DNA of 49,426 nucleotides. Origin: a virus. The stretch spans positions 1 through 49,426 of IMG/VR virus record IMGVR_UViG_3300035698_008779; one strand, given 5' to 3'. The position numbers were made by a program, and so were the translations under genes. Of this stretch, positions 1,511-49,426 are shown piece by piece (position 1 is the first letter of the stretch; every line of letters begins with the position of its first letter). The notes beneath the pieces are model-generated. The model was not told the DNA's origin. It was given only the letters and a program-made list of their open reading frames with translations, and ran no database searches.

Positions 1511-4146
1511 GGTATAAACGCACAGCATGTGAATGCACTGGCTGCCCCCTCGGGGGGCAGGTGAAGGTGCATCCCAAGGGAGGCCTCGGTAGCGGTATCG
1601 CCTTCTTCGGTGCCGCCCCGGGTGCGGTAGAGGAAGAGACCCGATTACCCATAGCGAATGACATGAGTACGTATTTCTCATGGGCATGCGGGCATGCGGA
1701 GATTGAGAGATCACAATGTTGGGAGAGCAACGTAGTCTCTTGCCGTCTCCCACGGAACAACTGGTACAACGTAGACTCAAAGGCCGCAAGGCAACATTGC
1801 AAGGAAGGTTTCCATGAAGAACTCGATTGGCTTAAAGAACAAGGAGTCACCGTCGCCGTTGCATTCGGTCCCAATGTGGCTAGAGAATTCGGTATCGTCG
1901 GTGATATCGATGATATCCGAGGGTCAGTGTATGAATATCACGGACTCTGGATCATACCTACGTTTCACCCTTCACGGTTCCAACAACTCTCCTATTACAA
2001 AGAAGACGGAGTTATGCTGGATCGAAAGTACGCATGGATCTGCGACTTCCTCAAGGTTAAACGCATCGCAGCCAACGGATGGGCCCCTCCAGTGGAGGAT
2101 TTCAAACTCTTCCCCAGCGTGGAGGATATCGAAAGTTGGATTGCCGAAGGCCTTACTAACAACGATGTATTCGCGGTGGATATCGAAACATCCGGGTGGT
2201 CTGACAAGGGGGAAATTGTTGTCATCGGTCTTGCGCGTTCTACAACAGATGCCATGGTTGTGCCTCTCAAGCGAAAGCACGGGTTTGATTATTTCAAATC
2301 CCCCAAGGACCAAGTTAAAATAACAGAAGCGCTTAATTTACTTTTCACCACCGGGAGGTTGATGTTTCAAAATGCCCTATTCGACGTGGGATTTCTTCGA
2401 AAGAAAGGGTACACAATTCGTTATGAAGATGTTACTCACGATTCTATGTTGCTCCATCACACTGTGGCTCCTGAGCAGCCCCACCGACTCGGTTACATCG
2501 TATCCATTTATGGAGACACTCCCTACTGGAAAGACGACTTCGCGAATCGAGGGTGTCCTATTTACGAGATGGAAGATGTTGACCTACGAACATATAATGC
2601 CCGGGACTGCGTAGTACTGCATCAAGTCCTGCAACCCATGCTCACGGACCTCAAGAGGTTAGAGGTCGAACATATATACTACGACGAAGCCCTAAAGCTC
2701 CTCGCCCCCATAGGTGAAATGATGGAAACCGGGCTCGTTCTTAACACAAGGAAACTTGATGGAATCCGGAAACAGTACAAAACTAGCCTACTCGATCTTG
2801 AACGAACTCTCCGAAGTACGCCGCTCGGTGGCTTCCCTGAGGCTTTTAACTTCGACTCATCTTCGGACCTGCAGTGGCTCCTTTACCGAAGTGCCCCCGG
2901 GAAGTTCAAGAAGCTTGCCAACCTCGCGGAGTATGATCCGGAGACGTGTAGTAAACACAACAAAGATGGCAAGGCTCGTCCGAGGAAGAAGGGTACGAAA
3001 GCCTATCAAACGTTGGTTGAAATACAATGTTTACAACAAGACACCCCCGTATTCAACCTCCCTACCGGGTTCAAACCCCGACGCACTAAAGAAGGAGCAC
3101 TAAAAACCGATGAACAAGCTTGTCTTGCAGTGGATGTCGCCTTGCTACGCCGCATACGCGATATCGAATCCTTTAAGAATCCTAAGCCCAAGCACGTTGA
3201 AGAGAAAACTCTTATGCAATATCAAAGGTCATGGATTAAGCTTCACCGGGAGTACCGGGAAGTGGGTAAGATCGTGTCTACATACCTTAACTTTCCAAAG
3301 CAAAGTGATGGCAAAGTACACACGAGTTTTCTCATACATGGAACGGCGACAGGGAGACTTTCTTCTCGGGAGCCTAACTTTCAGAACCTCCCTAAAGGAC
3401 GAAAGGAGATACGGTCTATCTTCACTGCTGAGCGTGGGACCATACTCGTTAGCGCAGACTACGCCAACCTCGAGGTCCTTGTGCTCGCGTATGAAACTAA
3501 TGACTTACCGCTTATTAACACTCTTGAGAGCGGTGCGAACATGCACGATATCAATACCCGAGACCTCTTTGGGATCGATGAAGATGACCCTCTATGGGCT
3601 ATGGGGCGTAAAGCCGCTAAGGTATTTATGTTCGGAGGTATATCATATGGTGGAGGAGATAGAGAAATCTACTCGAAGGTCCTCTTAGAGGCTCCGGATT
3701 TGGACCTGCTGCTGAGTGAATATGTAGAAGCCAAGGCTAACTGGATGCTAGCACACCCGGCATATGCAGAGTGGGCCGTAAGGGTAAAAGCCGAAGCGAT
3801 GGAAACGAGGTTCACTACTACCTTCCATGGACGCAAACGCGAACTCATGGGCCGGGAGAATGATATCCTCAAGCAAGCATTGAACTCTCCCATACAAGGT
3901 GGAGCCTCTGGGGTTATCAACCCGGCCACCATACGTCTCTACGCCGCTAAGCCCCCGGAGTGGAAACTCGCGGTGCAGATACATGACCAACTCGTTATGC
4001 AGGTTCCATTGCACGAAATAGACAAATGTGTAGCTTTAATGCGACAGGAAATGGAGAGACCTGTAATAATCGGAGGCCACCTCCGGATATTCCCGGTTGA
4101 TTTCGACATAGGATATAATTTAGCCTTTGAGAAGGAGACGATATGA
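1507..4146 (+). CDS. Family A (Pol I-like) DNA polymerase with N-terminal family-4 UDG-like domain and 3'-5' exonuclease domain
   Basis: UDG-like part: CECTGC, GAAPG, VVSCRLPRNN, FHPS. Exo motifs: AVDIETSG, NALFDVGFL, YNARDCVV. Pol motifs: SADYANLEVLVLA (A), RKAAKVFMFGGISYG (B), VQIHDQLV (C). Start placed at the ATGA overlap, not at 1450. Confidence 0.9.
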   Translation: MRYKRTACECTGCPLGGQVKVHPKGGLGSGIAFFGAAPGAVEEETRLPIANDMSTYFSWACGHAEIERSQCWESNVVSCRLPRNNWYNVDSKAARQHCKEGFHEELDWLKEQGVTVAVAFGPNVAREFGIVGDIDDIRGSVYEYHGLWIIPTFHPSRFQQLSYYKEDGVMLDRKYAWICDFLKVKRIAANGWAPPVEDFKLFPSVEDIESWIAEGLTNNDVFAVDIETSGWSDKGEIVVIGLARSTTDAMVVPLKRKHGFDYFKSPKDQVKITEALNLLFTTGRLMFQNALFDVGFLRKKGYTIRYEDVTHDSMLLHHTVAPEQPHRLGYIVSIYGDTPYWKDDFANRGCPIYEMEDVDLRTYNARDCVVLHQVLQPMLTDLKRLEVEHIYYDEALKLLAPIGEMMETGLVLNTRKLDGIRKQYKTSLLDLERTLRSTPLGGFPEAFNFDSSSDLQWLLYRSAPGKFKKLANLAEYDPETCSKHNKDGKARPRKKGTKAYQTLVEIQCLQQDTPVFNLPTGFKPRRTKEGALKTDEQACLAVDVALLRRIRDIESFKNPKPKHVEEKTLMQYQRSWIKLHREYREVGKIVSTYLNFPKQSDGKVHTSFLIHGTATGRLSSREPNFQNLPKGRKEIRSIFTAERGTILVSADYANLEVLVLAYETNDLPLINTLESGANMHDINTRDLFGIDEDDPLWAMGRKAAKVFMFGGISYGGGDREIYSKVLLEAPDLDLLLSEYVEAKANWMLAHPAYAEWAVRVKAEAMETRFTTTFHGRKRELMGRENDILKQALNSPIQGGASGVINPATIRLYAAKPPEWKLAVQIHDQLVMQVPLHEIDKCVALMRQEMERPVIIGGHLRIFPVDFDIGYNLAFEKETI

Positions 4147-4313
4147 ATACTTGCGAAACCTGCGGCTATTGCAAACGCGCCTACTACGAAACAGAAGAGG
4201 CTTGGTACGACTACTGCAGCTATGCGGTAGACCTCGACTACCGAGGAGTTGATATCCTGCACCACATGGACGACAACGACAACGATGACTGTGAGTATTG
4301 GGAGGAGAAATGA
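4143..4313 (+). CDS. Small Cys-rich acidic protein, 56 aa (below the ORF-track cutoff)
   Basis: ATGA overlaps at both ends (4143-4146 and 4310-4313). MNTCETCGYCKRAYY...DDCEYWEEK with CxxCxxC. Confidence 0.5.
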   Translation: MNTCETCGYCKRAYYETEEAWYDYCSYAVDLDYRGVDILHHMDDNDNDDCEYWEEK

Positions 4314-5815
4314 CGGGTAAACCCAAACCCTTCGAAGAATACCAGCTCGATAAGTTCTGGACCCCAGAACCGTGGGATGACATCATCCCCCAAGGGGGGT
4401 TCATCAATGACTTCGTGCTGAGTACTCGGGGTATTGAAACCCCCACGAAGTTCTGCATATGGAGCTCTCTTTTCATGCTCTCGAGTGCCCTAAAGCGTGA
4501 GAGCTACATCACATGGTACCCGTCACGCATTTACCCGAATATCTTCATCATCCTTGTCGGCCCACCCCGAATTGTCGCGAAGTCTACTGCGGTTAACTAC
4601 GGCGAAGGGCAAGTGCTCTCCAAATTCCATAACGAGTACACCACAAAGACCATGCAGGAGATCAAACGCGCCAATATTCTCCGGAAGTCCACCCCTGAGG
4701 CCCTCTCTATCGCCCTTGCCCCGGATACCATTGAATGGGCTGACTCAAAGACCAAGAGCCTCGTGAAGGTAGAACGCGGCTCGCAAGTGTGCCTCATTAT
4801 CTCCGAGCTCTCTACCTTCCTCGGGAAGCAGAAGTACAACATGGGCCTGATTGATCGCCTCACGGACCTGTATGACTGCAGGGATTCCAATGATGAGCTC
4901 ACGATCTCCCGGGGCCTGCAGACATTCGAGAATATCTATGTCTCCCTTTTCGGTGCTACCACCAAGGACGGCCTTGAGAACTCCGTACCCCCCGAGGCCT
5001 TTGGCTCCGGGTTTATGTCAAGGTTAATTATCGCATACTCTGGCCCAACACGCACTTTCGCCGTGCCTCGCCCTATTACCTTCAAAGACGGCACCCCCAT
5101 TGACTGGGCCCTAGAGCTTCGCCGCCGCCTCGCATGGGTAGCCGAGCGGGCTATGGGGGAATTCATCATGACCCCGGAGACTATTACAAAGTACTCCGAG
5201 TGGTACTACGCTTTCCGGAAGGTCCTGATGAAAAAGTCCGACTCGCAGATATCCCTCATGAAAACCCGCTACGACGTGCACCTTATGAAACTCATGATAC
5301 TCATCCGCGCCCAAGACTACACCTACGCAATGGACGACCCTCTCGCACGTACCATCACCCCTTCCGACTTCGATATGGCGAAGTACATCCTCGACAAGAC
5401 TTACGAGAACAACTTCCTCGCCATCGAAGAAGCCGCGGCTCCTGTGGGTAAAATTGGCAAGTGGCATAAGCGGGTCACCAAGATCCTGAAAGAAGGAAAA
5501 ATCACCGGACGTAAGGCCCTCCTACCGAAGATGTCTTCCTACGGATGCCTCATTGCGGATATGAAAACTATCCTCACCCAGCTTTACCACGAAGGGAAGA
5601 TCAAAATCTACAACGGAGACGGGACTGAACGCACTACCATCGGTACCAAAGGCACCGAAGAATACCATTGGCTTACCAAGGAGGTTACCATCAATGGCTT
5701 ATCCACCAGTAATAGCAACCATCCCTCTCGAGAGAATCCGGAAAACCTACCTCGAGACGCAGAGCACGAAGGAGACAGCGAAGCTCCTCGGGATATCCCG
5801 ACCGACGCTCTCTAA
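4310..5815 (+). CDS. DUF3987-like P-loop protein, putative replicative helicase/loader with a degenerate Walker A
   Basis: GGAGG 4 nt upstream. LVGPPRIVAKSTAV (Walker A-like with one extra residue and A in place of G). LIISELSTF (Walker B-like). Position next to the polymerase. Confidence 0.4.
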   Translation: MTGKPKPFEEYQLDKFWTPEPWDDIIPQGGFINDFVLSTRGIETPTKFCIWSSLFMLSSALKRESYITWYPSRIYPNIFIILVGPPRIVAKSTAVNYGEGQVLSKFHNEYTTKTMQEIKRANILRKSTPEALSIALAPDTIEWADSKTKSLVKVERGSQVCLIISELSTFLGKQKYNMGLIDRLTDLYDCRDSNDELTISRGLQTFENIYVSLFGATTKDGLENSVPPEAFGSGFMSRLIIAYSGPTRTFAVPRPITFKDGTPIDWALELRRRLAWVAERAMGEFIMTPETITKYSEWYYAFRKVLMKKSDSQISLMKTRYDVHLMKLMILIRAQDYTYAMDDPLARTITPSDFDMAKYILDKTYENNFLAIEEAAAPVGKIGKWHKRVTKILKEGKITGRKALLPKMSSYGCLIADMKTILTQLYHEGKIKIYNGDGTERTTIGTKGTEEYHWLTKEVTINGLSTSNSNHPSRENPENLPRDAEHEGDSEAPRDIPTDAL

Positions 5816-6245
5816 GTACCTCAAACTCGCTGGGGTTATCACCACGAAGGGGCGGAAAAAGGGCTCCAAAGCCACCAACCGGGGCATCCACCGTGGATGC
5901 TTCGCTCAATGGCTCCATCTGCACCCGGGTCAACCTATCCCCCGGTCGGTCGAGGAAATTGCAAAGCTTACCTCCTGTACCCATGACGAGGTGAAGAGCT
6001 ATCTCTACCGAAGACGTAATCGCGAGAAGACAAAGTTTTCACATATTGATTTCATCGGGAGTACACAGGTTCTTCATGACATAAGAGGTAACCCGATTCC
6101 TATGCAGGCGGTGAGAGCCATTACCGAGGTAGTAATCGATCCCTTTACCTTCGAAGGGACCGTTACGTTGGCTCTTAACAACGGTCAGCTCAAGACCTTC
6201 ACAGGCTCCTATGAGCGTATGGCTTTGATGGTTACTCCCTACTAA
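5694..6245 (+). CDS. Helix-turn-helix DNA-binding protein, last gene of the plus arm
   Basis: AAGGAGGT 9 nt upstream of the ATG. TKETAKLLGISRPTLSKYLK is a classic HTH. Overlaps the upstream gene by 122 nt in another frame. Confidence 0.65.
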   Translation: MAYPPVIATIPLERIRKTYLETQSTKETAKLLGISRPTLSKYLKLAGVITTKGRKKGSKATNRGIHRGCFAQWLHLHPGQPIPRSVEEIAKLTSCTHDEVKSYLYRRRNREKTKFSHIDFIGSTQVLHDIRGNPIPMQAVRAITEVVIDPFTFEGTVTLALNNGQLKTFTGSYERMALMVTPY

Positions 6246-9200
6246 CAGGGGCGGACATTAAGTGCAGGCCTGCTCTAACGTAGTCGCCTTCCTGCATGGC
6301 TTTCACTCCCTTCGTTATAGCTCTTAGTTCAAATGACCCCGGTGTTAGCATCTTGACAAGTTCACTTTTCGCTAAGTCGAGTTTCATCTTTCCGTCTACT
6401 ACACTGAGCCCTAAGGTCTCCGCTGCGCCTTGGCGGCCTTTGTAGTTCCCCGATAGCATACTCGGGGCAACCATTAAGCTATTCGCTAACTCATAAAATG
6501 GCCCACCTGTGAAGAACATTGGGTTCCACGGGAGGAAGTTCTTGGCATCAACTCCAAGCTCTTTGTATGCTCCATAGATTAACATACTATTAGCTGTCAT
6601 AGTAGCCCCGAAGGCGAGCTTATCGCTCAGGGGAGCATGCTTCAGGGTCCTCCGTATGTTGTCCACATAGTACGTCGGATACTGCCCGAACATACCGAAC
6701 ATCTTACCTACCACGCCCCTAAAGGCCTCTGGGGCCATGCCACTACGGTAGGGGAACATTGCCCTTTCTACGATGTGCGTTGCATACATATCCCGTGCTG
6801 CATTCCAGTTCCCTTTATCCACTAAATCCATAAGAACCGCTTTATTCGATTGCTCCATGAAGTTCACACCCGCAAGGTCCGCGAATTGATCTCGCGAGAC
6901 TCCAAGTCGTTTAAACCTATCCACTGCATCCATGAATCGGCTCTCCGCACTTGCATATGACACCGCTCTGGTGAAGTCATCAGAATTGGTATACCACTGG
7001 AGCCCTTTCTTCGAGAGCTTCTGTAAGAGCCCTGTTTCGTTAAAGAGTCTATCCCCTCCTGCAAGCGGCGGGGCAGTGGTGATAATACCTTTCGCTCGGA
7101 GAGCATCAAATATCACCCCGTCTTTGTCGTTCATAATCCTCTTCAACCCTATTCGTACATTCCGGTTATCTACCAATGGAGCCAACGTGGTAAATATTTG
7201 ATGCATATTTCGTATTGGTAACCACGGGCGTACTGACATTGTGGCGTTATAACCCAACATCATAGCATAGTCCACGAGGTCTTTACTCTCCGATCCTGAG
7301 AACCCCCACTTTTTCCATATGTTATTCGTGGCCTCTAAGAGCCGCTTTTCTCCACCGGTCTTTATCCCCATGACCTCTTCGAGATACGACCCCATACGTA
7401 GCGACTGTACGTAATTCCGCGGGTTACCCGAGTTGACCTTTACAAGTTCCCGCATGGCCTTGTAGGAATCCCCAATGAAGAGATCCCTATTCCCCAATGC
7501 GGCATATTTAATGAGCAACTTCACCGGGTTCTCTTCCAACACGAGGTTCTTTATCTCCCTCGAGCTTCGGGTATTCTTAAAAAACGCATTCAATGCATCC
7601 GGGACTCCGCCTTCCTTATAGAGCTCTTTTAAGAACTTCGGAGCTTCCTCGATTTCTATCCCCGGATTCTCCGCTAGCTTCCGTCGTAACTGCGGTATGT
7701 AGTTATCGATGAAATCATATTGTATATCAAACTGTCGGAAGAGGCCTTCCTTTGCACTCCCTCCCCAGAGTTCTCGGAATTTACTCGCGACCTCTAAGTG
7801 CTTCTCTCCTAACCCCATCTCCTTTGCGAGGGCTTCCCAGCCTTCCCTTGGGGTTTCCATAATCTTCCCAATCCCAACGAGTTCGTTATACGGTAAGAGC
7901 TTTCCGTTCTCCGAGGCAATGGTAGACACCAACTGCCCAACGGTCTGTGTTCGCCCCGTTGCCATACGGCGTCCATTCTCTATCGCCCTGAAGCCGTCTC
8001 GGTACATAACATCCCCACCGTGGTATACCGCGTCTTCAAATACCAACGCGGTAGGCTTTATCATTGCTGTAAGATCCGCCCACGACTCCCGGAGGCCTGT
8101 GAAGTACTTCGGAGTCTTAGCCTTGGTAGCGTCCACTGGCACTGCCCATGAAGGGATATTCGCTGGTTGCAAAATCGCATTAACAGTTGCCCCATCAATC
8201 CCCGTGAGTTCCGGTGCCCACTGAGGGGGTACAATCTTCGCGAGTTCCGCTTTGACTTGCTCGATAGTAGTTGCCCGAATACCTACTCCCTCGTCGGTAT
8301 GGAGATAAAACTCCCCACCGAATACATCAAGTTGGTAACCCTTGTAACTCGCCATGTCGGATATGGTTTTATAATCCCCTTTAGCATTTTTTATAAGCGC
8401 CTTGGCTTCATCAAGGGTATCTACCCTTCCACGATACCCAACATCAGGAATGTGTACTTCAAAGCCAGCAATCCCGGAACCCTTTTGGAACGATGCTGTT
8501 GCCCCGCTCGGGGAGAGTTTAATCTTCTCTTCCACAACGTCTTTGCTAAAGTGCTTTAAGTGGTCAAGAACTGTGTGATATGAACCTACTACGGCTTTTT
8601 CTACATACTGTATCTCTGTCATTCCTGAGGCAACGATACCTACAGTGGGTCCCGTTGATGCAGGTGCATTGGGTATGAACTCCTTGTTCTGAAACAAGAA
8701 CTCTTCAATGCTTCCTTCATTCCAAATAACCCGGTTACCGGAATCTAATACCTCAATAGCATTTCCTTCCCCATGCGCGAGATGCAGCCCCTCTGTCTGC
8801 CCGAGATGCGCTGCAAGGTCATCAAATGTCGTGACCTTTGCCATAACGAAGTCCCCGAGATCGTTGAGATTACTAAAGGATACTGTATCATTAGTACTAT
8901 GCGCCATGACATCTTTATCCGAGATGAACTTATACACCCCGTCTTCTAATGCTATATGCCCACCAAGATGCTCTCGTGATACGTTATCCAACCACCCGGG
9001 GGTGTAGAGCCCCATCTTCCCTGCGGTGTCTGCATAGATCTCTGAAGTAAGAGTCCTTACCCCCTTGAGGTTATTCCTTTCCGCGAACTCATTGATGGAA
9101 TCAATTATCTTCCCTACAGAACCTGCTTCCTCAGCGGCGCTTTGAAACCCTGCACGGACTGTTGCAAGTTCTGTATCGAGTAACTTGAGCTGGAGATACT

Positions 9201-10716
9201 TTCTTCCAGAACGTTCTATCTCCGTGACGTTGATGTTAGAGAGTATCGGACTCCCGGCATCCATGCTCCCGAGATACCCCTTCGCGAAGTCCTTCACTCT
9301 TCGGGCAGAGAAGGCTCCATTCTCCGGAGCAAGGATATTCGTCAACATATCAACGTTGACTTTATTCCCCAAAGAGGCCTGCCTACTCACGACTTTCCGT
9401 ACCTGCATACGGTCGTAGCCTCGCCCCTTTGCGAGGGCATCTACAACTTCTACTGCCGCGGTATCCTCAATAGTCTTGATGTCTTTGATAACGAATTTCT
9501 GCACATCGTCCAGATTCCCAAACGAATGCTTTATGTTGTTTCCGAAATTCCATGTCTCGTATGCGTCATCGACTTTCTTTAATCCATATCCATGGGCGGC
9601 TAACACCATCCCGAGGGATTCGTCTGTCATCTCATCGATGTTAATTGAGCCTACTCTATCCATTACCTTGAGGGCATTTCGGCTAGACACCAGTGTGTCA
9701 AATATTTCTTTCGGTAGGAGCCCCATTTGCGCGGGGTCGATATCTTGCAGGAGGTACACTCTTCGAAGCATATCATCTACCTGCTGCTTCGGGAGGTGTT
9801 CCATAATTATCTTATGATTTCCCCAGCCTTTGAAGTTCTTACCAAAGCCCTTCAGCATTGGCAAAACGATACCGATCCCGACGTTGGCTATGATGTCTCC
9901 TATGAAGTAGTCTCCAAAATAACTCTTTGCATTTGCGGATATGTTCTGCCAAGTGGGCTCTTTCTCGAGACCGTTCATACTATCAAGTATTAGTTCCCTT
10001 GAGGCCCCCATCACACCACCTGCAGCTGCGTGGGCTACATCAACGCCAAGTGCCCCAAGGCGCAGCATCCTTGAACCCTTTGTGGCTTTCATAGCGGCCT
10101 GTGCTGGCCATGAGAACAACTTCCCGAGACCAACCGCACTTGCGGGGGTAAACCCCACTCCTACTGCGTACATCGCAGCGATTTCCCCAAATTGCGCTGC
10201 AAATCCCACTGCTCCCGCCATAGTCCGAGTGCGTCTCGCAACCTTTGCGTCTGTTTGCACCACGCTCTGGAAGTAATCTGCTACCTTCGCTTCTTCAGCT
10301 TTCCCAAGGCGTGTGAAGTCATGTCCAATTCCTACATAGTTCCCTACAGTGTTTAGGCCTTTATCAAATAACGGGGCTATAAGCTGATTGTCTATAAAAT
10401 TTACTAAAATACTCTGCGTATTTGCTGCTCGTCTCACGATGAAGTTTGTTGCTACCTTCATCGCTTCTTCATCGCCTGCTGTAGCCTTTGCCCCTACATC
10501 CGCTACCAGCTTTGACATCTCCGGATTCGCCATCACTGGGGGGGTGAACACCGCATCGTTAAAAACTTTGCTCTTCACCTCAGGCTCTAAGGCTCCCCAT
10601 TCGGGGATACTCGGTAAGTACTGAGCATAATACGCTGAGCGTAGTTCTGTCTGATCCTTATATGAGAGATTTCTAAATCCCGGATCAGCTTCCATTGCTT
10701 GTAGTTGATCTGGCAT
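6232..10716 (-). CDS. Very large internal virion / DNA-ejection protein (1494 aa)
   Basis: AAGGAG 5 nt upstream. Terminal position after two other internal-type proteins, as in podovirus core-protein sets. No enzymatic motif recognised. Confidence 0.55.
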   Translation of the reverse strand: MPDQLQAMEADPGFRNLSYKDQTELRSAYYAQYLPSIPEWGALEPEVKSKVFNDAVFTPPVMANPEMSKLVADVGAKATAGDEEAMKVATNFIVRRAANTQSILVNFIDNQLIAPLFDKGLNTVGNYVGIGHDFTRLGKAEEAKVADYFQSVVQTDAKVARRTRTMAGAVGFAAQFGEIAAMYAVGVGFTPASAVGLGKLFSWPAQAAMKATKGSRMLRLGALGVDVAHAAAGGVMGASRELILDSMNGLEKEPTWQNISANAKSYFGDYFIGDIIANVGIGIVLPMLKGFGKNFKGWGNHKIIMEHLPKQQVDDMLRRVYLLQDIDPAQMGLLPKEIFDTLVSSRNALKVMDRVGSINIDEMTDESLGMVLAAHGYGLKKVDDAYETWNFGNNIKHSFGNLDDVQKFVIKDIKTIEDTAAVEVVDALAKGRGYDRMQVRKVVSRQASLGNKVNVDMLTNILAPENGAFSARRVKDFAKGYLGSMDAGSPILSNINVTEIERSGRKYLQLKLLDTELATVRAGFQSAAEEAGSVGKIIDSINEFAERNNLKGVRTLTSEIYADTAGKMGLYTPGWLDNVSREHLGGHIALEDGVYKFISDKDVMAHSTNDTVSFSNLNDLGDFVMAKVTTFDDLAAHLGQTEGLHLAHGEGNAIEVLDSGNRVIWNEGSIEEFLFQNKEFIPNAPASTGPTVGIVASGMTEIQYVEKAVVGSYHTVLDHLKHFSKDVVEEKIKLSPSGATASFQKGSGIAGFEVHIPDVGYRGRVDTLDEAKALIKNAKGDYKTISDMASYKGYQLDVFGGEFYLHTDEGVGIRATTIEQVKAELAKIVPPQWAPELTGIDGATVNAILQPANIPSWAVPVDATKAKTPKYFTGLRESWADLTAMIKPTALVFEDAVYHGGDVMYRDGFRAIENGRRMATGRTQTVGQLVSTIASENGKLLPYNELVGIGKIMETPREGWEALAKEMGLGEKHLEVASKFRELWGGSAKEGLFRQFDIQYDFIDNYIPQLRRKLAENPGIEIEEAPKFLKELYKEGGVPDALNAFFKNTRSSREIKNLVLEENPVKLLIKYAALGNRDLFIGDSYKAMRELVKVNSGNPRNYVQSLRMGSYLEEVMGIKTGGEKRLLEATNNIWKKWGFSGSESKDLVDYAMMLGYNATMSVRPWLPIRNMHQIFTTLAPLVDNRNVRIGLKRIMNDKDGVIFDALRAKGIITTAPPLAGGDRLFNETGLLQKLSKKGLQWYTNSDDFTRAVSYASAESRFMDAVDRFKRLGVSRDQFADLAGVNFMEQSNKAVLMDLVDKGNWNAARDMYATHIVERAMFPYRSGMAPEAFRGVVGKMFGMFGQYPTYYVDNIRRTLKHAPLSDKLAFGATMTANSMLIYGAYKELGVDAKNFLPWNPMFFTGGPFYELANSLMVAPSMLSGNYKGRQGAAETLGLSVVDGKMKLDLAKSELVKMLTPGSFELRAITKGVKAMQEGDYVRAGLHLMSAPVSRE

Positions 10717-29324: not shown

Positions 29325-30092
29325 TTAACGTTTAATGGTTTGACCCTTAGAGTCAGTCTGCGGCGTAAACTGCGCCCGTTGACTCTTCACGGGGTCATAG
29401 ACTCCATCCGGATTAATAGAGGAAATATCACTCTCTACTTGGGCTCCAATGCCGCTAGAACGCTTGAGACCACGCTCTCGCTTAGCTACCTGTCGCGTTG
29501 CATAGACTACTTTCGGTATAGCCATGAGAATAGATTCATCCTCACCGCCAGCCGTAAGCTTCTTCAGCCCGCTGGGTGTGGAGTCCGCAGTGCGAATCCC
29601 ACCGTCTTTAACCACTTCATAACCTTCACGGGAATGCTGGTGGATTTTATCAGTCCGGCTCCAGCGATATTCCATATCAGGCCGCTTCCCTTCGACTTCG
29701 GTTCTCGAAGAGGCTTTGGCGTAACGTCCTGTGATTTGGATTTCACTCAAATCAGGCATTTCGTCCTCGCCGATTCGGTATTCCCAGTCGCCCTTAGCGA
29801 GGGAGTATCGATCACGATTCGACTTAGAGAGCTCCCGGAGGGAAGCTTGATCTAAGCGGAGGAAAGTGTTGACGCCATCGTCGAACTGCAGCTTTCGCCC
29901 ATCGTTGTCGTAGGATAGCACATCGGCGAGTGGAGTGTCAATGGTGATGGTAACGAAGGGGAGGTCAAGGGGTGGGGTAGGTGGGGTAGGGGTAGGGGTA
30001 GGGGCAACCGAAGGCTCTACAGGAATTTCGAGCTTAGCAACCGGAGCCGGTACTACCTCTTCGTCTGTCCATGTCGTGTCGTTGTTACTCAT
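29325..30092 (-). CDS. Head-module protein of unknown function with a PT-rich linker (255 aa)
   Basis: ATGA overlap with the scaffold gene. APTPTPTPPTPP linker. No protease motif recognised. Confidence 0.55.
   Translation of the reverse strand: MSNNDTTWTDEEVVPAPVAKLEIPVEPSVAPTPTPTPPTPPLDLPFVTITIDTPLADVLSYDNDGRKLQFDDGVNTFLRLDQASLRELSKSNRDRYSLAKGDWEYRIGEDEMPDLSEIQITGRYAKASSRTEVEGKRPDMEYRWSRTDKIHQHSREGYEVVKDGGIRTADSTPSGLKKLTAGGEDESILMAIPKVVYATRQVAKRERGLKRSSGIGAQVESDISSINPDGVYDPVKSQRAQFTPQTDSKGQTIKR
29958..30004 (+). repeat. G-run cluster (seven GGGG runs, including GGGGTA x3) on the plus strand, encoding the PT linker on the minus strand
   Basis: ggggaggtcaaggggtggggtaggtggggtaggggtaggggtagggg read directly from the sequence. 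Confidence 0.9.
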
Positions 30093-30982: not shown

Positions 30983-31034
30983 CTCGAATGCTCCTTTTAA
31001 TGGTTTCTATATGGGTGTCTATTAGGTCTAGCAT
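30957..31034 (-). CDS. Possible mini-ORF (25 aa) in the portal-scaffold gap; part of a longer 91-aa frame overlapping the portal 3' end
   Basis: AAGGAG 8 nt upstream of the ATG at 31034. MLDLIDTHIETIKRSIRDEQRKAQV. Confidence 0.25.
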   Translation of the reverse strand: MLDLIDTHIETIKRSIRDEQRKAQV

Positions 31035-31062
31035 GATAAGAGCTCCTTGGGCTCTGTATACC

Positions 31063-33090
31063 TCATGCACCGGCATCGCTTGCGTTAAGTTCCTGTACTC
31101 GCTCTGCCTGAGAGGGAGGAGTATCCGCTCCTTGAGGTCCCGCCATGCCCTGCTGCTGAGCATTTCCATCAGCCCCGCTAGTTGCGGTTGGCTTAAGGGT
31201 TCCTGAGGGTTGTTGCTGTCGAATGCTTCCAAGTTGTTGCTCCTTCATGAGGTCCATCTGGGCCATCATTAATTCCATGTCTTTATAGAAAGGTAAGTAA
31301 GAATCTGCATTGCGTTCTTCGAAGTGGTCGAAGATGGCTTCCATGAGTTTAGTTCCACCGACATAAAACTCCGCGGCGAGTTCTTTCATTTTCGGGGTAG
31401 CCTCAGGAGATTCCATCATCTGCGCGAGCATGAACATCTTTTCACCATACATAGAATACAGGTTAAAAAGCATCATCTTTTGCTCAATTTTGGCGTCATT
31501 GGTATCTGAGGCATCGGTGGTTTCAACCCGGAAAGAAAACACCGTCGGAATGTCTTCGACATTAAGGGCGAGGATTTCCTCAAAGATCTTTTGGTCACCT
31601 TCCGAGAGCATAGGGAGAATAGAAGCACGGGACTTGTCGGCATTTTTTACGAGCTGGAAAGCTGCGAGCTGGCCGATTTCTGCATAGGCTTCTTCGATGT
31701 TCTCAATGAGTGCCGAGGAGACCTTTTCATTCTGAGAGGCGAGGAAGAGCGTGCCCTTAGCGGTAGCACGAGTGCCGATAGCTTTGTTCTCGAAGCCCAT
31801 CTGGGCATCAGGGAGTTGATTTGCCCGGTCGTTGTACTCCTTCGCCATCATCTCGGCTTGGATGGACTCGTAGCCGACTCCGGGGAAACGGATCGGTTGG
31901 AAGTCCTTCACGTCGTCCACGTCGATTTGTTTAAGAGGCCGGAATTCTTCCTCAACTCCATTAAGAGAGTTTGGGCCTCGTCGTCGGACGTACATTTGAA
32001 GCGATGCGATGTGGGTCGCATCCACTCGCATATTGTGTATTGCGTCAATTTCATCCTGCATTGGCTCTGAGATCCAGCCGGTCCCGAGTGCGTACAGTTG
32101 GTAGGGCAAAGAAATAAAGGGGATTCTAACGATAGGTCGTATGGATAGGTCATTGTATTCGATCCGTAAGAGTGATTGAGATTCAGGATGAAGCCAGAGA
32201 ACGAGATCTTCGGGAATACCATCGCCGTCGATATCCCAGTACACATAACATTCCACAATTTCGTACATCTTAGTATCAGAGGAGATATCAATTCCTTGCC
32301 GAGAGAGATCCGCGGTGTGGTTTTCGTCCAGCACAGCTTGGTTACCGGCGAGAACGGTTTCTACTGCTTCCTCTGCGTAGATGCCCTGTTGCATACGCTG
32401 AAGGAGCTCGTGTTCCATGAGGTAAATACGATGGCCGATCCAAGGTGCGCGTTGGATATCGTACCAGTAGGGTCGTGTGAGGAAGTCTTCCATGCGAATG
32501 GGGATAACAGCAGGGGAGTTATGTCGTACACGAGAGACGACTTCAGTAGCTCCTGTGGCATTACGGCGCTTAAAGGTCACGGCATCTGTGAGCCACGGGA
32601 TTTTCACAAACTGCGTCCCCATACGGGCGACATCATAGAATATCGTATTATTCACCTGCCGGAGGTTTAAGTGATCCTTAGACTCGGCCATGATGTTGAG
32701 GACTTTGGTAAGGACGCGAGCGTGGTCCTCGTTGCCCTTAACGTCTGTGATTTTCCAAAAGTCATTCCGGTTGCCGAAGATGTTCTTCAACATGGCAAAG
32801 ATACCATGGGTAGAGGTCATAGTAATAGGGACTGTTACATTACTCGCTCCGTCCCATGGGTAGGTTTTGCGCTCTTGCTCGGGGCGGCCTTCGGAAATAC
32901 GACGCCACTTGGCCCATTTCTTCTCCATAGTACCGCGTTCTTCTCCGGAGGTAACGGAGTTGATTTCAGTAGTAAGGTACTCGGTGAGAAGCTTCTGATC
33001 CTCCTCCGAGGCGAACATCCCGTCCTGTACGGGTTCAATGCCGAGATTGATATTCGCGTCGAGATTAAATTCCTGCGTGTCGTTTGCCAT
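31063..33090 (-). CDS. Portal protein (675 aa)
   Basis: Size and position immediately downstream of the large terminase. AAGGAG 6 nt upstream. Disordered Q/G-rich C-terminal tail. Confidence 0.75.
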   Translation of the reverse strand: MANDTQEFNLDANINLGIEPVQDGMFASEEDQKLLTEYLTTEINSVTSGEERGTMEKKWAKWRRISEGRPEQERKTYPWDGASNVTVPITMTSTHGIFAMLKNIFGNRNDFWKITDVKGNEDHARVLTKVLNIMAESKDHLNLRQVNNTIFYDVARMGTQFVKIPWLTDAVTFKRRNATGATEVVSRVRHNSPAVIPIRMEDFLTRPYWYDIQRAPWIGHRIYLMEHELLQRMQQGIYAEEAVETVLAGNQAVLDENHTADLSRQGIDISSDTKMYEIVECYVYWDIDGDGIPEDLVLWLHPESQSLLRIEYNDLSIRPIVRIPFISLPYQLYALGTGWISEPMQDEIDAIHNMRVDATHIASLQMYVRRRGPNSLNGVEEEFRPLKQIDVDDVKDFQPIRFPGVGYESIQAEMMAKEYNDRANQLPDAQMGFENKAIGTRATAKGTLFLASQNEKVSSALIENIEEAYAEIGQLAAFQLVKNADKSRASILPMLSEGDQKIFEEILALNVEDIPTVFSFRVETTDASDTNDAKIEQKMMLFNLYSMYGEKMFMLAQMMESPEATPKMKELAAEFYVGGTKLMEAIFDHFEERNADSYLPFYKDMELMMAQMDLMKEQQLGSIRQQQPSGTLKPTATSGADGNAQQQGMAGPQGADTPPSQAERVQELNASDAGA

Positions 33091-33101
33091 GAGTGCTCCT
33101 T

Positions 33102-34853
33102 TTAGTAACCCGTTAGGTTACTTGTTCGGTTTTTCCATCGTTGGGTCTGAAGGGCTCGGACTTCGAGCTCCTCCGGGGAAATGGGTTTAATAGAGTTCTT
33201 AACCCCACTAGAGATTGCATCGAGTATGTCCTTTTTAGAACTGCTAGGGAACCCACGAGACTCCTCGAGGACGGCATTCATATACACCTCATTGATATAG
33301 AGGTTCTTACGTTGAAGGATAGGGCCGAGCTCATTGCGTATGCGAGCGTCTTTATCACCAATGGCAGCAAAGGGCCGGAGGTGGAGGTAGATCTGCTTGT
33401 CGTGCTCAAGGCGGTTGAGAATGGGGCTTAGTACCTTGAAACCCGCATTGGACTCGAGATACGTGGAGCGAAGGTATCGACCATAGGTGACGGCGAAGTC
33501 AAACATCCACTCGAACATCGTGTTGGGGTCAACGTAATCGGCCTTCATGTCAAACACGACATGGCGACCGGACCAATGCGTCCCGAGCATCACCACCGCG
33601 GACTTCGAAGTCTTCGCGGAGATGTATCTCTCCGTGCCTGCAGGGTCAACTGCCATAAGGACATCGAACTCGGAGAGAGGCCGCTCAGCGTCGTAACCGT
33701 GCCCTTCTGGGTCGAATTCCCTCCATGTGACCCAGTATTCGTTATTATGGGTAGTAAGCCCCGAGGTCTGGAGGGGGAAGTCGATAAATTCGGCTAACCC
33801 ACTGCTTTGTGGGTTATTCTCATACTGTGTCGCCCATGTCCACCAGTCGTCCTCGGCGATCTGTTGGAAGTCCTCTAGGGAGAATCTTTCAGGAAAAATT
33901 GGCTGATTATCTTCAATAGCCTGACGGTAGTAAATACTCCATTGGCCTTTTTCCTTTGCCTCGAACCCCGGCATAGGATATCCAAGCACTCGATAGGCAC
34001 GGTCAATAATATCAGCATACAGATCATCAACAGCATAACGAGTCCCAACGACAAACGACCAAGAGCTTTGAGGAGATATAAAAAGACTCGGGAGGTTTGT
34101 CCAAAACCAATTTTTAATGTTCTCCATCTCGGTACCCGAGGCTCGCATTGCATTGAGGACCTTTTCGCCGAATGGGTCGTCGAGGACGTGACCAGAGTGG
34201 TGCATGCCCTCCGCAGATCCCCCAGCGCCCCCGGGCAATACGGTTGGTTCTCGAAAGGTCTTAGTTCTATCGGGGCGAACGATCTCTTTGTCGTTCCAAC
34301 GTTTAGCATTAGGTTCGGGAACCCCCTCAGGGTAGAGGGCAGCGAAGAATATGTTAGAATCGTGGATGGATTTGATGGTGTGCATGAAGTTGTGGGCTCG
34401 GTCACTTGTTGCTCCAGATATTCGTATTCGTTCATTCGGGTCGCGGTTGATGAGCCACGCGGTGCCGCCTTCGGTAGTGCATGTGCTCTTAAAGTGGCTC
34501 CTCGGGATGTACATAGCAGCGCGTTTCCCGGGTAGGGTGTTCTCCTGCCAGAAGTTGCACATATCCATATGCAAATGGGGAGTTAGACTCTCGAAGGGCC
34601 CGGAGTAAGCTGCAATGACTTTTAAAAAGAACCAGAGGTTCACGAATCCGGCCTGCCGCAGGACTTCGCGAAACGTCGTGGTATTTGGATAGTTGCCGGT
34701 TTGCACTTCTGCGAGGACTTGTTTGAGTACTAACTCCCCATCGGGGGCGGAGAACAGCGGAGCCTTAGGGTGTGGGGTGATTACGGGGGAAATCGGGACA
34801 GGGGGTAGCAGGTCCTCCGGGGCTTTGGGGGTGATGAGGAGTTTCTTGGCCAT
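33102..34853 (-). CDS. terL: Terminase large subunit
   Basis: 583 aa. YIPRSHFKSTCTT (ATPase P-loop-like), VLDDPFGE (Walker B-like), MAVDPAGT (nuclease-domain Asp). TAATG coupling to the upstream gene. Confidence 0.85.
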   Translation of the reverse strand: MAKKLLITPKAPEDLLPPVPISPVITPHPKAPLFSAPDGELVLKQVLAEVQTGNYPNTTTFREVLRQAGFVNLWFFLKVIAAYSGPFESLTPHLHMDMCNFWQENTLPGKRAAMYIPRSHFKSTCTTEGGTAWLINRDPNERIRISGATSDRAHNFMHTIKSIHDSNIFFAALYPEGVPEPNAKRWNDKEIVRPDRTKTFREPTVLPGGAGGSAEGMHHSGHVLDDPFGEKVLNAMRASGTEMENIKNWFWTNLPSLFISPQSSWSFVVGTRYAVDDLYADIIDRAYRVLGYPMPGFEAKEKGQWSIYYRQAIEDNQPIFPERFSLEDFQQIAEDDWWTWATQYENNPQSSGLAEFIDFPLQTSGLTTHNNEYWVTWREFDPEGHGYDAERPLSEFDVLMAVDPAGTERYISAKTSKSAVVMLGTHWSGRHVVFDMKADYVDPNTMFEWMFDFAVTYGRYLRSTYLESNAGFKVLSPILNRLEHDKQIYLHLRPFAAIGDKDARIRNELGPILQRKNLYINEVYMNAVLEESRGFPSSSKKDILDAISSGVKNSIKPISPEELEVRALQTQRWKNRTSNLTGY

Positions 34854-35305
34854 TACTCACCAGCCTCCCACGTAGGAATTGCTTCCCGGGGGGTAATTCG
34901 GGGTACGGGAGGAACGAGGGTGGGGGTAAGGAAGGATTTTTCATCATTTGCTCCTATAAGGGCTCCAAGGCCCTCTTTTGCGGACTCTAGCATCTTCATA
35001 TCGAAGTTAATAGCAATACCCGGGGTGGAGGAAGCGGCATTAAGTTTAGGATTAAGGCCGATTATGTCCATTACCCGGTCGGCTGCATGGCGAGCATTGG
35101 TGGGGTCAGTGGTCACCTTCGCCATAAGGGCAAGGTACACCTCAATGGCCTTGTCACCGAGAATATTTTTTACATACGCCTTGACTTCATCCGGGGGGAG
35201 GCCCCCGAGTATGGAGGCTTCCGGGTTTTCCGGGTTGCTACTACCTTGTTCCATTACTCGGAGGGTATCATGCCTTGGGCTTCCTTTGCTACCCTTGGGG
35301 GTCAC
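34853..35305 (-). CDS. Putative terminase small subunit (start uncertain: GTG at 35305 or ATG at 35254)
   Basis: First gene of the late arm. Its stop overlaps the terL start. About 150 aa. No motif recognised. Confidence 0.4.
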   Translation of the reverse strand: MTPKGSKGSPRHDTLRVMEQGSSNPENPEASILGGLPPDEVKAYVKNILGDKAIEVYLALMAKVTTDPTNARHAADRVMDIIGLNPKLNAASSTPGIAINFDMKMLESAKEGLGALIGANDEKSFLTPTLVPPVPRITPREAIPTWEAGE

Positions 35306-35478
35306 GCGAAATGTAAACCTACCTTGTTTTTGGGCCCCATAATGCCTTGACCATTAGCCCGCCCGCGCGTAGGGTTTTCCGAATTCATATAGAGAAAGTC
35401 GCATATAAGGGTTTCCATATGTAATTGATCAAAGGAATGATTGAATGAAGGGAGTGGAGAGGATGGAGGGAATGGAGA

Positions 35479-35580
35479 GTGTACAATAAAGGATACACCC
35501 GAGAGGTAAAATCACCACAAGTGGGTCAGAATGACACAGTGGGTCAAAGTGACCCAGAGGTGTGCACAAAAGGATACACC
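35479..35580. repeat. Two 21-bp boxes (35479..35499, 35560..35580) flanking two tandem 15-bp GTGGGTCA-type repeats (35521..35535, 35539..35553)
   Basis: GTGTACAATAAAGGATACACC vs GTGTGCACAAAAGGATACACC (18/21 identical). GTGGGTCAGAATGAC vs GTGGGTCAAAGTGAC. Palindrome GGGTCA-AAG-TGACCC at 35541..35555. Confidence 0.85.
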
Positions 35581-35809
35581 TCATGTACGTGAAAGCGTAC
35601 CCCGCACTATGGGAAATATGCGGAAATAGACGACTATGGGAACTATACCCGCTTCCGTCTCTTGGAGAGATTAAGCTTGAAAAAGGTCCAGTCTCTCCAA
35701 CACCTCCAGTCTCTCTCATTCAAGGTTAATCTCTCCTCTAATACTAATAAATATATAGAGTATATATAGTATATAAGCATAGTAAGTGAAGGGCACACGG
35801 GAAAGCGTA

Positions 35810-35847
35810 ATGTGTGAGATATGTGGGGAATGTGGGGTATGTGAGAT
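35810..35847. repeat. Four tandem 9-11 bp ATGTG repeats
   Basis: ATGTGTGAGAT ATGTGGGGA ATGTGGGGT ATGTGAGAT. Confidence 0.85.
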
Positions 35848-36183
35848 ACCTCCAGAATATCCAATCCCCAAGGGTAGCAATATCCATGCCAAGAATACCT
35901 GAGTAAAATACACAAAGTACACCTCCCAAGCTGGGAAGATCCACCAAGGGAAAAACACCACAATACTATAGAGGAAAGGCATAGAATCCCGTGAGTGGGC
36001 TGTGAAGGGGTCGCCAAGGCGTCAAGGGGAGAAAGTGGACAAAGTATCCAACTATGCCCCACATCGTCGCGTGGTGGGCACATGGGGACGTATGCGCCAA
36101 TATGCCACCAAATATGTCTAATAAAGATGAAGGTGTGCCAATATGACCCGATTCACCCCCAAATACCTCCAGAGGAGGGCATA

Positions 36184-36510
36184 ATGGGCCAATTTGAATC
36201 CCTATATAGCAAAACCCGCATAGTTAAATCGTTACCCTGTAAGGAGTTACGTACTTGGCACACTCTATGCAATATATTAGACGTTCCCCATTGGGGGCTG
36301 GCCGAAAGGCATCTAAAAGGAGAAATACTTCTCATGACCGAAATAGAAAAGGCAACTCAACTTCTTGAACCACTTTATAAAGAAGTGGAGCAGATCACCG
36401 GGAAACGTCGGGAAGTCTGCATGCATGAACTGGAAAGACTGCTTGATGCGATGCAGATATCAAACGATGACCTTGGGGCCGAATTGTACTATCAAGACCT
36501 TTATACCTAA
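36184..36510 (+). CDS. First early-arm protein (108 aa; alternative internal start at 36334)
   Basis: GAGGAGGG 5 nt upstream of the ATG at 36184. The 36334 ATG has AAGGAG, but at 11 nt. Confidence 0.45.
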   Translation: MGQFESLYSKTRIVKSLPCKELRTWHTLCNILDVPHWGLAERHLKGEILLMTEIEKATQLLEPLYKEVEQITGKRREVCMHELERLLDAMQISNDDLGAELYYQDLYT

Positions 36511-37259: not shown

Positions 37260-37266
37260 GACGCAA

Positions 37267-37304
37267 GGGTAAGGAGGGTAAAACCTCCTTACCCTGTTCT
37301 TTTC
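37267..37304 (+). terminator. Rho-independent terminator
   Basis: Perfect 11-bp stem GGGTAAGGAGG / CCTCCTTACCC, 6-nt loop, then TGTTCTTTT. Confidence 0.8.
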
Positions 37305-37331
37305 AAAGCATAGAAAACCCGAGACTTTCCC

Positions 37332-37407
37332 CATACTCAGCCGCGCTTGCGTGGCTTTTAATATATATCCCGTCCCGTGACCCAGAATCTCGCATACTCA
37401 GCCGCGC
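37332..37407 (+). repeat. Two 15-bp direct repeats CATACTCAGCCGCGC (37332..37346, 37393..37407) in an intergenic region
   Basis: Exact duplicates 61 bp apart. The first overlaps a second hairpin (37339..37356) that is followed by TTTT. Confidence 0.85.
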
Positions 37408-37492
37408 AATGGGGACGGGGTGGTGGGTGACCACACCCGCCGTAGGGCACGGATAGGTGGGTGAGGTGGGCAAGGCACAAGGAGCTAATAGC

Positions 37493-49161: not shown

Positions 49162-49426
49162 ATGTTTGTAAACGAAATTACATTCGGGATATCCATAGGA
49201 GGGCTCACGAGTGGCTCCGTGGGGTTCATGATAGAGCTCACAGGGGAAGAAGCCACGAGTGACGAGTTGGGAGATCTCCTTATCGCCATACGCCGCCATG
49301 ATAAGGGGCCGTATAAATCCGTGCAACTCCGGGGGGAATTCACCGCACTCAATAACATCGACGTTATGACCCTCGTGAAGTCCCTCGCTGATGTCGGGTA
49401 CCTCGTGCAGGTCGTTACCAATGGGA
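49162..49426 (+). CDS. 5' part of the junction-spanning ORF (continues at 26..327)
   Basis: GAGGAGGA 7 nt upstream. No stop before the window end. In frame with 4..327 after removing the 25-bp overlap. Confidence 0.6.
   Translation, partial: MFVNEITFGISIGGLTSGSVGFMIELTGEEATSDELGDLLIAIRRHDKGPYKSVQLRGEFTALNNIDVMTLVKSLADVGYLVQVVTNG
49402..49426. repeat. Terminal 25-bp sequence identical to 1..25
   Basis: Exact match read directly from the sequence. Confidence 0.9.

Follow-up and report, generated by a model that had tools for sequence, protein, structure and literature searches.

The viral record IMGVR_UViG_3300035698_008779 (49,426 nucleotides [nt]; hereafter the window, meaning the whole stretch of DNA that was analyzed) is a 49,401-bp genome assembled as a circle, with bases 1 to 25 identical to bases 49402 to 49426 (a 25-bp overlap). 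Its genes form two arms. The early, or replication, arm lies on the plus strand, runs from the ATG at 36184 across the map end to 6245, and encodes a family-A DNA polymerase, a DUF3987 primase-helicase, a helix-turn-helix (HTH) protein, a PD-(D/E)XK exonuclease, a Sak4-like annealing protein, and an RNA ligase; the breakpoint of the circle falls at an arbitrary place within this arm. The late arm lies on the minus strand, runs from about 35300 to 6232, and contains, in order, a small-terminase-like gene (terS), the large terminase, an SU10-type portal, head proteins, and several very large orphan proteins. Here we consider the stretch between the two arms (positions 35306 to 36183), which is the sole divergent junction of the circular map and by far the largest gene-free gap of the genome (the runner-up among gaps between the open reading frames [ORFs] of the arm strands is about 250 bp). 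This region is very probably a noncoding, cis-acting hub conserved across a phage family, and we hold with moderate confidence that its core (about 35440 to 35880) is a replication origin embedded in an early/late promoter-operator region.

The extent of the gap depends on where terS begins. A gene call in the European Nucleotide Archive (ENA), made on an identical contig, starts terS at an internal ATG (133 aa), and the 17-codon N-terminal extension from the GTG at 35305 has a negative codon score, so that the gene most likely starts at ATG 35254 and the gap measures about 929 bp (35255 to 36183). The sequence-only reading from which this analysis proceeded had described about 0.88 kb, from 35306, that held no credible ORF; the left edge probably has to be moved, but the absence of genes is borne out. 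The codon-usage log-odds of all ORFs in the gap, including one of 146 aa, range from −0.04 to −0.30 bits per codon, as opposed to +0.02 to +0.45 for the real small genes of this genome; these ORFs also have no Shine-Dalgarno sequences and lie over the repeat arrays. None of the 32 stop-to-stop six-frame peptides of the gap found a significant match by tblastn in about 100 related loci, where the terS control was recovered at 1e-8 to 1e-10, and no conserved protein-coding gene, which would have spoken against a noncoding region, emerged from these loci; both flanking early genes also find nothing by tblastn, which makes this a weak test for fast-evolving genes. An exact look-up of the terS protein returned a single 2-kb ENA contig, identical to the window and ending at 35505; this contig covers 251 nt of the gap (35255 to 35505), in which the ENA gene caller placed no gene upstream of terS. 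Exact-protein look-ups of the large terminase and of early genes 1 and 2 returned no record.

The region also matches no catalogued element. The Rfam/Infernal scan that had been proposed for it was run over the whole window with the Rfam 15 covariance models and yielded no family at the gathering score (with a relaxed E value, only NEAT1_2 at E = 0.1, which is noise). ARAGORN predicted no tRNA or tmRNA, and blastn found no match to the region among 50,697 phage records and 72,556 plasmids.

What the gap does contain is an extensive set of repeats (Table 1). Every repeat family listed in the sequence-only reading is present, displaced by no more than 1 to 2 nt, although two of them, TGGAG in three copies and TCCAGTCTCTC in two, are not separate families but one 9-bp iteron family (CTCTCCANN, or CTCTCCA; here M3) that forms arrays A and B in opposite orientations. 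A further element is a CTCTC-(TA)n tract that is unstructured as a single strand (z = −0.7). Beside it, an 18-nt inverted repeat encloses array B and, as a DNA hairpin, has a dG of −15.2 kcal/mol (z = −5.1). A perfect 15-nt inverted repeat, its arms 565 nt apart (a pairing reached in 0 of 40 shuffles), brackets M1, both arrays, M2, and the TA tract, and is nested with the array A/array B pair about a common center at ~35583. The core of the GTACGTGAAAGCGTAC hairpin, GAAAGCGTA (at 35591), recurs at 35801. The tandem ATGTG(GGGA) 9-mers at 35821 to 35847 read on the opposite strand as TTCCCCACA-type sequences, which are two mismatches from a DnaA box. The TGGGTCA palindromes occur nowhere else in the genome, and the main boxes likewise have no other copies in it.

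TABLE 1 Coordinates of the junction elements, of the neighboring genes discussed in the text, and of the corresponding promoter regions in relatives
Feature	Position	Strand	Description
Whole gene-free junction	35255..36183	.	Between terS ATG 35254 (minus) and first early ATG 36184 (plus)
Late-promoter-like site	35262..35291	-	TAGCAA-18-TACCCT, weak; 7 nt before ATG 35254
15-nt inverted repeat, left arm	35286..35300	.	TTGCTACCCTTGGGG; perfect, long range
Box M1	35353..35380	-	Late direction: GGAAAACCCTAC-N10(GC-rich)-GCTAAT
Short direct repeat	35371; 35407		AGGGTTTTCC at 35371; AAGGGTTTCC at 35407
Array A	35443..35479	-	9-bp units of the CTCTCCANN iteron family (M3), 3.9 copies; includes TGGAG x3
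Box M2, copy a	35479..35499	+	GTGTACAATAAAGGATACACC
Box M2, copy b	35560..35580	+	GTGTGCACAAAAGGATACACC; M2 is the 21-bp box of the sequence-only reading
Palindromes	35522..35556	.	TGGGTCA-N3-TGACACA (35522) and TGGGTCA-N3-TGACCCA (35540), 18 bp apart; operator-like; z = -3.5
Hairpin/palindrome	35585..35600	.	GTACGTGAAAGCGTAC; GAAA loop, z = -7.1
Short direct repeat	35606; 35633		ACTATGGGAA
18-nt inverted repeat	35664-35681 / 35719-35736	.	17/18 complementary; encloses array B and adjoins TA tract
Array B	35684-35719	+	Four 9-bp M3 units; includes TCCAGTCTCTC at 35687 and 35705
CTCTC-(TA)n tract	35737..35790	.	Genome-wide A+T maximum; candidate DNA unwinding element
23-nt direct repeat, two copies	35799..35848	.	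Holds tandem 9-mers ATGTGGGGA / ATGTGGGGT / ATGTGAGAT
15-nt inverted repeat, right arm	35866..35880	.	CCCCAAGGGTAGCAA; perfect, long range
TGYGCCAATATG boxes (CCAATATG boxes)	36093 and 36134, within 36093..36196	+	Candidate early operator sites
Box variant	36185		TGGGCCAATTTG; overlaps first early start codon
First early protein, 108 aa	36184-36510	+	Strong Shine-Dalgarno; borderline codon usage, +0.02 bits per codon
DNA polymerase A	1450-4146		N-terminal uracil-DNA-glycosylase-superfamily domain (Pfam UDG, E = 4e-8)
DUF3987 primase-helicase	4298-5815		Marginal Pfam DUF3987 match, 28.5 bits vs cut-off 27; also PHROG primase match
HTH protein	5694-6245		Pfam HTH match at residues 19-46
1494-aa protein	6232-10716	-	Far end of late arm
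terS promoter regions in relatives	L015 2672-2709; L035 1986-2035; L003 8756-8792		

Both repetition and A+T content set the region apart from the rest of the genome. Its coverage by direct repeats (k = 8 to 11) is the highest among 235 genome segments of equal size and exceeds that of all 300 dinucleotide shuffles, and 7 of the 27 Tandem Repeats Finder rows of the genome fall within these 1.8% of the sequence, with a recurrent period of 9/18 bp. The 30-, 40-, and 60-nt segments with the highest A+T content of the entire genome all lie at 35726 to 35790. Coverage by inverted repeats, when counted as exact k-mers, is not exceptional for the region as a whole, but individual inverted repeats are.

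For comparison, about 100 related loci (designated by L numbers) were retrieved through the large terminase from IMG/VR and the JGI metagenomes, with the annotated phage vir526 in addition; identities extend down to about 33%. The nearest relative has a large terminase that is 60% identical, and its junction is not alignable. When the junction regions of five relatives were aligned with MAFFT, only the M1 box was informative, and comparison then proceeded by motif. Conservation of the repeats in related genomes, which had been suggested as a check on the region, was found for the TA tract, the CTCTCCA arrays, M2, and M1.

Gene-poor gaps lie upstream of terS in L003 (1,064 bp), L014 (695 bp), L015 (1,096 bp), and L035 (781 bp), divergent junctions with gaps of 0.45 to 1.1 kb occur in L049, L057, L062, L068, L082, L087, and L091, and each of these gene-poor divergent junctions (0.45 to 1.1 kb) contains a TA tract. 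A strong (TA)n tract is present within 3.5 kb upstream of the large terminase in 18 of the 33 relatives with enough flanking sequence, as opposed to 0 of 33 over the same length downstream, and it is kept in genomes that range from 29% to about 52% G+C. On its late side, the tract is preceded by CTCTC in the window, L003, vir526, L045, and L062.

The repeats around the tract recur as words of fixed sequence in some lineages and are replaced by other repeats in others. The exact 12-mer CCATTCTCTCCA, for which about 0.1 occurrences are expected by chance, is present in five independent relatives, L003, L009, L045 (twice), L059, and L075, always in one orientation relative to the terminase gene and within 9-bp-periodic CTCTCCANN (CTCTCCA) arrays of up to about 11 units that adjoin the TA tract. 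The M2-type box (TGTRYACAAAAGKAKACAC, about 19 bp), found twice in the window, occurs in L009 (three copies), L014/L015, L068, L074, and L075 (two copies); the M2 matrix scan was noisy (31 matches versus 13 in shuffled loci), and its top matches alone were used. Lineage-specific iterons surround the tract in vir526 (TGCAWTTTT), L062 (ATAATTATGCATAA), and L015 (TAAGGTTAC at a 17-bp period), and ACGTGAAAGTGTA, which is similar to the GTACGTGAAAGCGTAC hairpin, comes after the tract in L014. DnaA boxes fall in the same region: L045 has 8 of them within 250 bp, L059 has 5, and L015/L016 have a perfect inverted pair beside the tract. The 720 kb of all loci together contain 20 perfect boxes, compared with 5.5 expected. 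The window, L015, L062, and L068 also have significant long-range inverted repeats on either side of the tract, whose sequence differs by lineage and whose arms measure about 100 nt in L062.

The best-conserved noncoding element is M1, a two-block box shared by a closer subclade, which consists, in the late direction, of GGAAAACCCTWC, 10 GC-rich bases, and KCTAAY. Its spacing is identical in the window, L003, L035, and L027; L022 has the first block only, and L014 to L016 have variants. M1 always lies just upstream of the terS-like gene, in relatives about 100 nt beyond the terS promoter, and is a candidate regulator site or packaging signal. A search of IMG/VR for the exact pattern returned the L003 contig and five chance matches in coding DNA. 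An ECF-sigma or T7-type promoter was also considered for M1 and was ruled out by its spacing and by the lack of other copies in the genome. In the terminase-distant Zobellviridae phages CW02 and CRP-5, the layout upstream differs, and these phages were not informative.

Transcription signals are clearest in the relatives. Near-consensus sigma70 promoters (10 to 11 of 12 matches) end 6 to 20 nt before the terS start codon in L015, L035, and L003, with an extended −10 element in two of the three, indicating a leaderless or very-short-leader message and a bacterial host. In the window, the site TAGCAA-18-TACCCT would be the terS promoter, as its position matches that of the strong promoters in relatives, and the TGGGTCA palindromes and TGYGCCAATATG boxes look like operators. 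The window also carries intrinsic terminators.

Together, these features are those of the iteron-like repeats and AT-rich element, noncoding and placed at a divergent junction, that the sequence-only reading had recognized, and this junction proves to be the only divergent one of the map. Of the hallmarks of a replication origin, an AT-rich unwinding element and repeated iterons beside it are present, and the binding of protein to these iterons is predicted. The CTCTC-(TA)n tract would act as an easily melted unwinding element, flanked by putative protein-binding repeats, namely, the opposed CTCTCCA arrays, the two M2 boxes, the tandem TGTGGGG 9-mers, and the bracketing 15-nt repeat. An initiator would assemble on the flanking repeats and open the tract for the phage PolA replisome; the phage's own DUF3987 primase-helicase is the likely candidate for this role, by analogy with P4 alpha and other SF3-type helicases, possibly assisted in some relatives by a host factor such as DnaA. 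The terS-side flank would then supply a weak, probably activator-dependent late promoter ahead of a leaderless terS, together with M1 and the two operator-like palindromes, and the early-side flank would supply the candidate operators of the TGYGCCAATATG type, which are repeated and extend into the first early gene.

The proposal of an origin, already among those of the sequence-only reading, is strengthened by the relatives that keep the TA tract with iterons or inverted repeats, some of them with DnaA-box clusters, but several observations weigh against it. DnaA boxes (TTATCCACA) are absent from the gap of the window, even when one mismatch is allowed, and about 45% of the relatives with enough flank have no strong TA tract. 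Cumulative GC skew reaches its minimum at 29.8 kb, about 6 kb from the junction; AT skew alone switches at the junction, yet AT skew also tracks the direction of transcription. The displaced minimum results from the portal and large terminase genes (31000 to 35000), which have a positive plus-strand GC skew despite being encoded on the minus strand, opposite to the remaining late arm. A sigma70 scan with a threshold of 9 of 12 matches found no site in the gap (the best gap sites reach 8 of 12, and the one match of the scan lies inside terS), so that the late promoter here is weak and perhaps activator dependent; an early promoter was not identified in the gap at this threshold either, and no sigma70 promoter was detectable in any gap of the genome. 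For this genome, the promoter side of the model is accordingly weak. The (TA)n tract might just as well function as a UP element or a promoter, and the role of the repeats could lie in packaging and not in replication. Finally, the initiation site, the initiator, and its binding are all predictions.

A tentative alternative, which is compatible with an origin, holds that the region contains the physical ends and packaging signals of a phage with a T7-type terminase. A short direct terminal repeat and its flanking arrays would have been collapsed into a single copy in the circular assembly, and M1 and the terS-side repeats would be sites of terminase recognition or processing. The best PDB matches of the large terminase are the T7 gp19 structures 4BIJ and 8DGC (E = 6e-7), and it matches the NCBIfam model termin_lrg_T7 at E = 9e-14, though with 51 bits against a curated cutoff of 150; from a terminase of this type, the prior expectation is concatemer packaging with short direct terminal repeats. 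The SU10-type portal, the constant position of M1 ahead of the terS-like gene, and the nested inverted repeats with one center would fit such ends, as would the closure of the assembly at an arbitrary place by the 25-bp overlap, which is expected for a collapsed terminal repeat. In T7, arrays of short repeats adjoin the terminal repeat at the genome ends; N4 shares the two-arm layout, and its ends lie at the junction that corresponds to this one.

The contigs of four relatives (L006, L009, L026, and L074) stop exactly at the TA tract, which may hint at a physical end or may reflect poor assembly or coverage at (TA)n, a common sequencing and assembly artifact; at least 10 assemblies run through the region. 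The end of the L051 contig lies in coding sequence and not at the junction, and the breakpoints of full-length relatives are arbitrary. Moreover, the terminase genes of T7 are transcribed toward the end, whereas here terS and the large terminase lead the late arm and are transcribed away from it, and a packaging role leaves the DnaA-box clusters of the relatives unexplained.

It is rather unlikely that the region is purely a transcriptional switch, with divergent promoters and operators, a TA tract that serves as a UP element or promoter, and an origin located elsewhere. An early/late switch at this site had been proposed from the sequence and gains indirect support from the strong promoters that abut terS in three relatives. 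The position at the divergent junction and the operator-like palindromes and boxes that are absent from the remaining genome accord with it, as do the weak match of the first early protein to PRK08558 and the presence of an encoded HTH protein (5694 to 6245). In L082 and L091, the TA tract is about 50 to 100 nt from the first late-side gene, as a promoter element might be, but in the window it is about 390 to 480 nt from either flanking gene and the region has no detectable sigma70-type promoter. In addition, 0.9 kb far exceeds what two promoters need, and the DnaA clusters and iterons that flank the AT-rich tract in relatives are features of origins rather than of promoters.

Less likely again is a self-contained palindromic origin, in which two SF3-type primase-helicases would sit head to head around (TA)n, the region possibly being also a concatemer junction. 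The CTCTCCA 9-mer arrays, M2, and the lineage-specific long inverted repeats may then position the helicases, and such an origin would be closer to that of SV40 or of archaea than to a classical phage iteron origin. The nested dyads could double as a concatemer junction that regenerates a terminal repeat.

The sequence-only reading had also allowed for a structured leader or noncoding RNA (ncRNA), which the present results do not favor and which we consider improbable. An RNA of about 270 to 600 nt, closed by pairing between arrays A and B and between the 15-nt arms, would agree with the folding z scores of the region (−2.7 on the plus strand and −4.05 on the minus strand, 20 shuffles each), the GAAA-loop hairpin, the nested inverted repeats with their shared center, and the long-range complementarity, differing in sequence, of four lineages. 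However, the complementary blocks are conserved as DNA words of fixed orientation across divergent relatives, and the negative z scores are accounted for by DNA palindromes and inverted iteron arrays of the kind found in protein-binding sites. No Rfam family matched at the gathering score, no promoter or terminator delimits a transcript, and the junction of the closest relative, at 60% large-terminase identity, is not alignable.

More improbable still is that the hairpins with 3-nt loops are early promoters of the DNA-hairpin type described in N4 (PMC4496689), recognized by a virion RNA polymerase for which the 1494-aa late protein would be the candidate. The second of the two palindromes forms a stem of 7 bp with a purine loop of 3 nt (AAG), the first fits in part, and no sigma70 promoter is detectable in the gaps of the genome. 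N4 has a similar two-arm layout, with a giant protein likewise at the distal end of its late genes. Nevertheless, the 1494-aa protein and a three-sequence profile built on it match no polymerase in Pfam, PHROG, or PDB, the palindromes are specific to this lineage, present in two copies, and not conserved in relatives, and the relatives clearly use sigma70 promoters. Searches of the 1494-, 1046-, 849-, 812-, and 632-aa late proteins in Pfam and PHROG (for the 1494-aa protein, also of PDB by phmmer and profile) gave no polymerase signal.

Hardly credible, lastly, is a small, fast-evolving protein gene, or several, hidden among the gap ORFs of 55 to 146 aa: homology is weak evidence here, as the flanking early genes have no detectable homologues, but every gap ORF has a negative codon-usage score, lacks a Shine-Dalgarno sequence, and overlaps the repeat arrays, none is kept in relatives that retain the DNA motifs of the junction, and the ENA caller found no gene in 35255 to 35505.

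Several of the neighboring genes bear on how the junction might be controlled. The first early protein has a weak match (E = 8e-4) to the N-terminal part of NCBIfam PRK08558, a region that is possibly a DNA-binding domain, and it may be a small DNA-binding regulator of the adjacent CCAATATG boxes. The DUF3987 primase-helicase has no match in PDB. The ORF of the HTH protein begins about 120 nt before the primase-helicase gene ends, and its Pfam HTH match lies mostly within this overlap; the equivalent genes of vir526 overlap by just 4 nt. The start of the HTH gene in the window, and perhaps the HTH call, should be regarded as provisional. The 1494-aa protein has no Pfam, PHROG, or PDB match, and two homologues of it were found (44% and 22% identity). 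Elsewhere in the early arm, positions 37260 to 37456 form a second, smaller control region, with a strong hairpin resembling an intrinsic terminator at 37265 to 37295, followed by a T run, and a 15-nt direct repeat (CATACTCAGCCGCGC) at 37332 and 37393. A late gene contains a G-rich tandem tract at 29968 to 30004 (AGGGGT/GGTGGGGTA units, about 6.8 copies).

Because vir526 is labeled with the host Methanomicrobiales, an archaeal host was considered. It was rejected in view of the DnaA boxes and sigma70 promoters of relatives and the intrinsic terminators of the window. Together with the groS gene of vir526, these features point to bacterial hosts and make the archaeal label doubtful.

The region provides a concrete map of cis elements for a widespread family of uncultivated phages, known from marine, saline-lake, sediment, and enrichment-culture metagenomes. 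New contigs of the family can be searched for the TA tract, the CTCTCCA arrays, and the M2 box, sequence signatures that mark the junction and probably the origin. Elements of this kind are already known, and the family-wide signatures are useful without holding a surprise for the specialist. If the core is indeed an origin, it offers a starting point for learning how a phage with a DUF3987 primase-helicase initiates replication.

Iteron-type theta origins (oriLambda, P1 oriR, and P4 ori/crr) have an AT-rich tract flanked by short direct or inverted repeats. The junction resembles them in its AT-rich tract and repeat arrays, to which some relatives add DnaA clusters, as does P1 oriR, and the phage resembles P4 in encoding a P4-alpha-like primase-helicase (DUF3987) as a possible initiator. 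In contrast to these origins, the region has no sequence similarity to any known origin or plasmid, contains no DnaA boxes in the window, and is neither inside nor beside an identified initiator gene; its iterons are 9-bp head-to-tail units, as opposed to spaced units of about 19 to 22 bp. The inverted sites that bracket an AT-rich center in the window, L015, L062, and L068 recall the SF3-helicase origins of SV40 and papillomaviruses and the inverted origin recognition boxes of archaeal oriC, and we take DUF3987 helicases to belong to the SF3/D5-like group. Unlike those systems, this is a tailed bacterial phage without homology to them, and its SF3 assignment depends on a marginal DUF3987 match and a PHROG primase match.

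The concatemer junction and left end of T7 are reported to combine a terminal repeat, flanking arrays of short repeats, an AT-rich secondary origin, and strong early promoters. Shared with it are a probably T7-type large terminase, a repeat-dense noncoding region ahead of the early genes, an AT-rich tract, and a replisome of PolA and primase-helicase; T7 differs in that the present phage has no phage RNA polymerase, has two opposed arms, and transcribes its terminase genes away from the region. With N4 (Schitoviridae), the phage shares converging arms, terminase genes that start the late arm where a circular map shows the divergent junction, a giant protein at the far end, and small hairpins with 3-nt loops. 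It differs from N4 in genome size (49 kb, as opposed to 70 kb), in that neither a virion RNA polymerase nor RNAPII is detectable, and in that the terS of its relatives uses sigma70 promoters.

The closest parallel in layout among annotated genomes is Caudoviricetes sp. vir526 (BK063670; L100), the only annotated relative, for whose junction we found nothing in the literature. Its large terminase is 34% identical, and its PolA is 38% identical over 97% of the protein. M1 was not seen by eye in this junction, the record being outside the motif scan, and, unlike in the window, groS and two other genes lie between terS and the junction. The two arms nevertheless have the same order, and between them is an unannotated junction of 1.08 kb, where TGCAWTTTT iterons, present in both orientations, flank a CTCTCTG-(TA)n tract.

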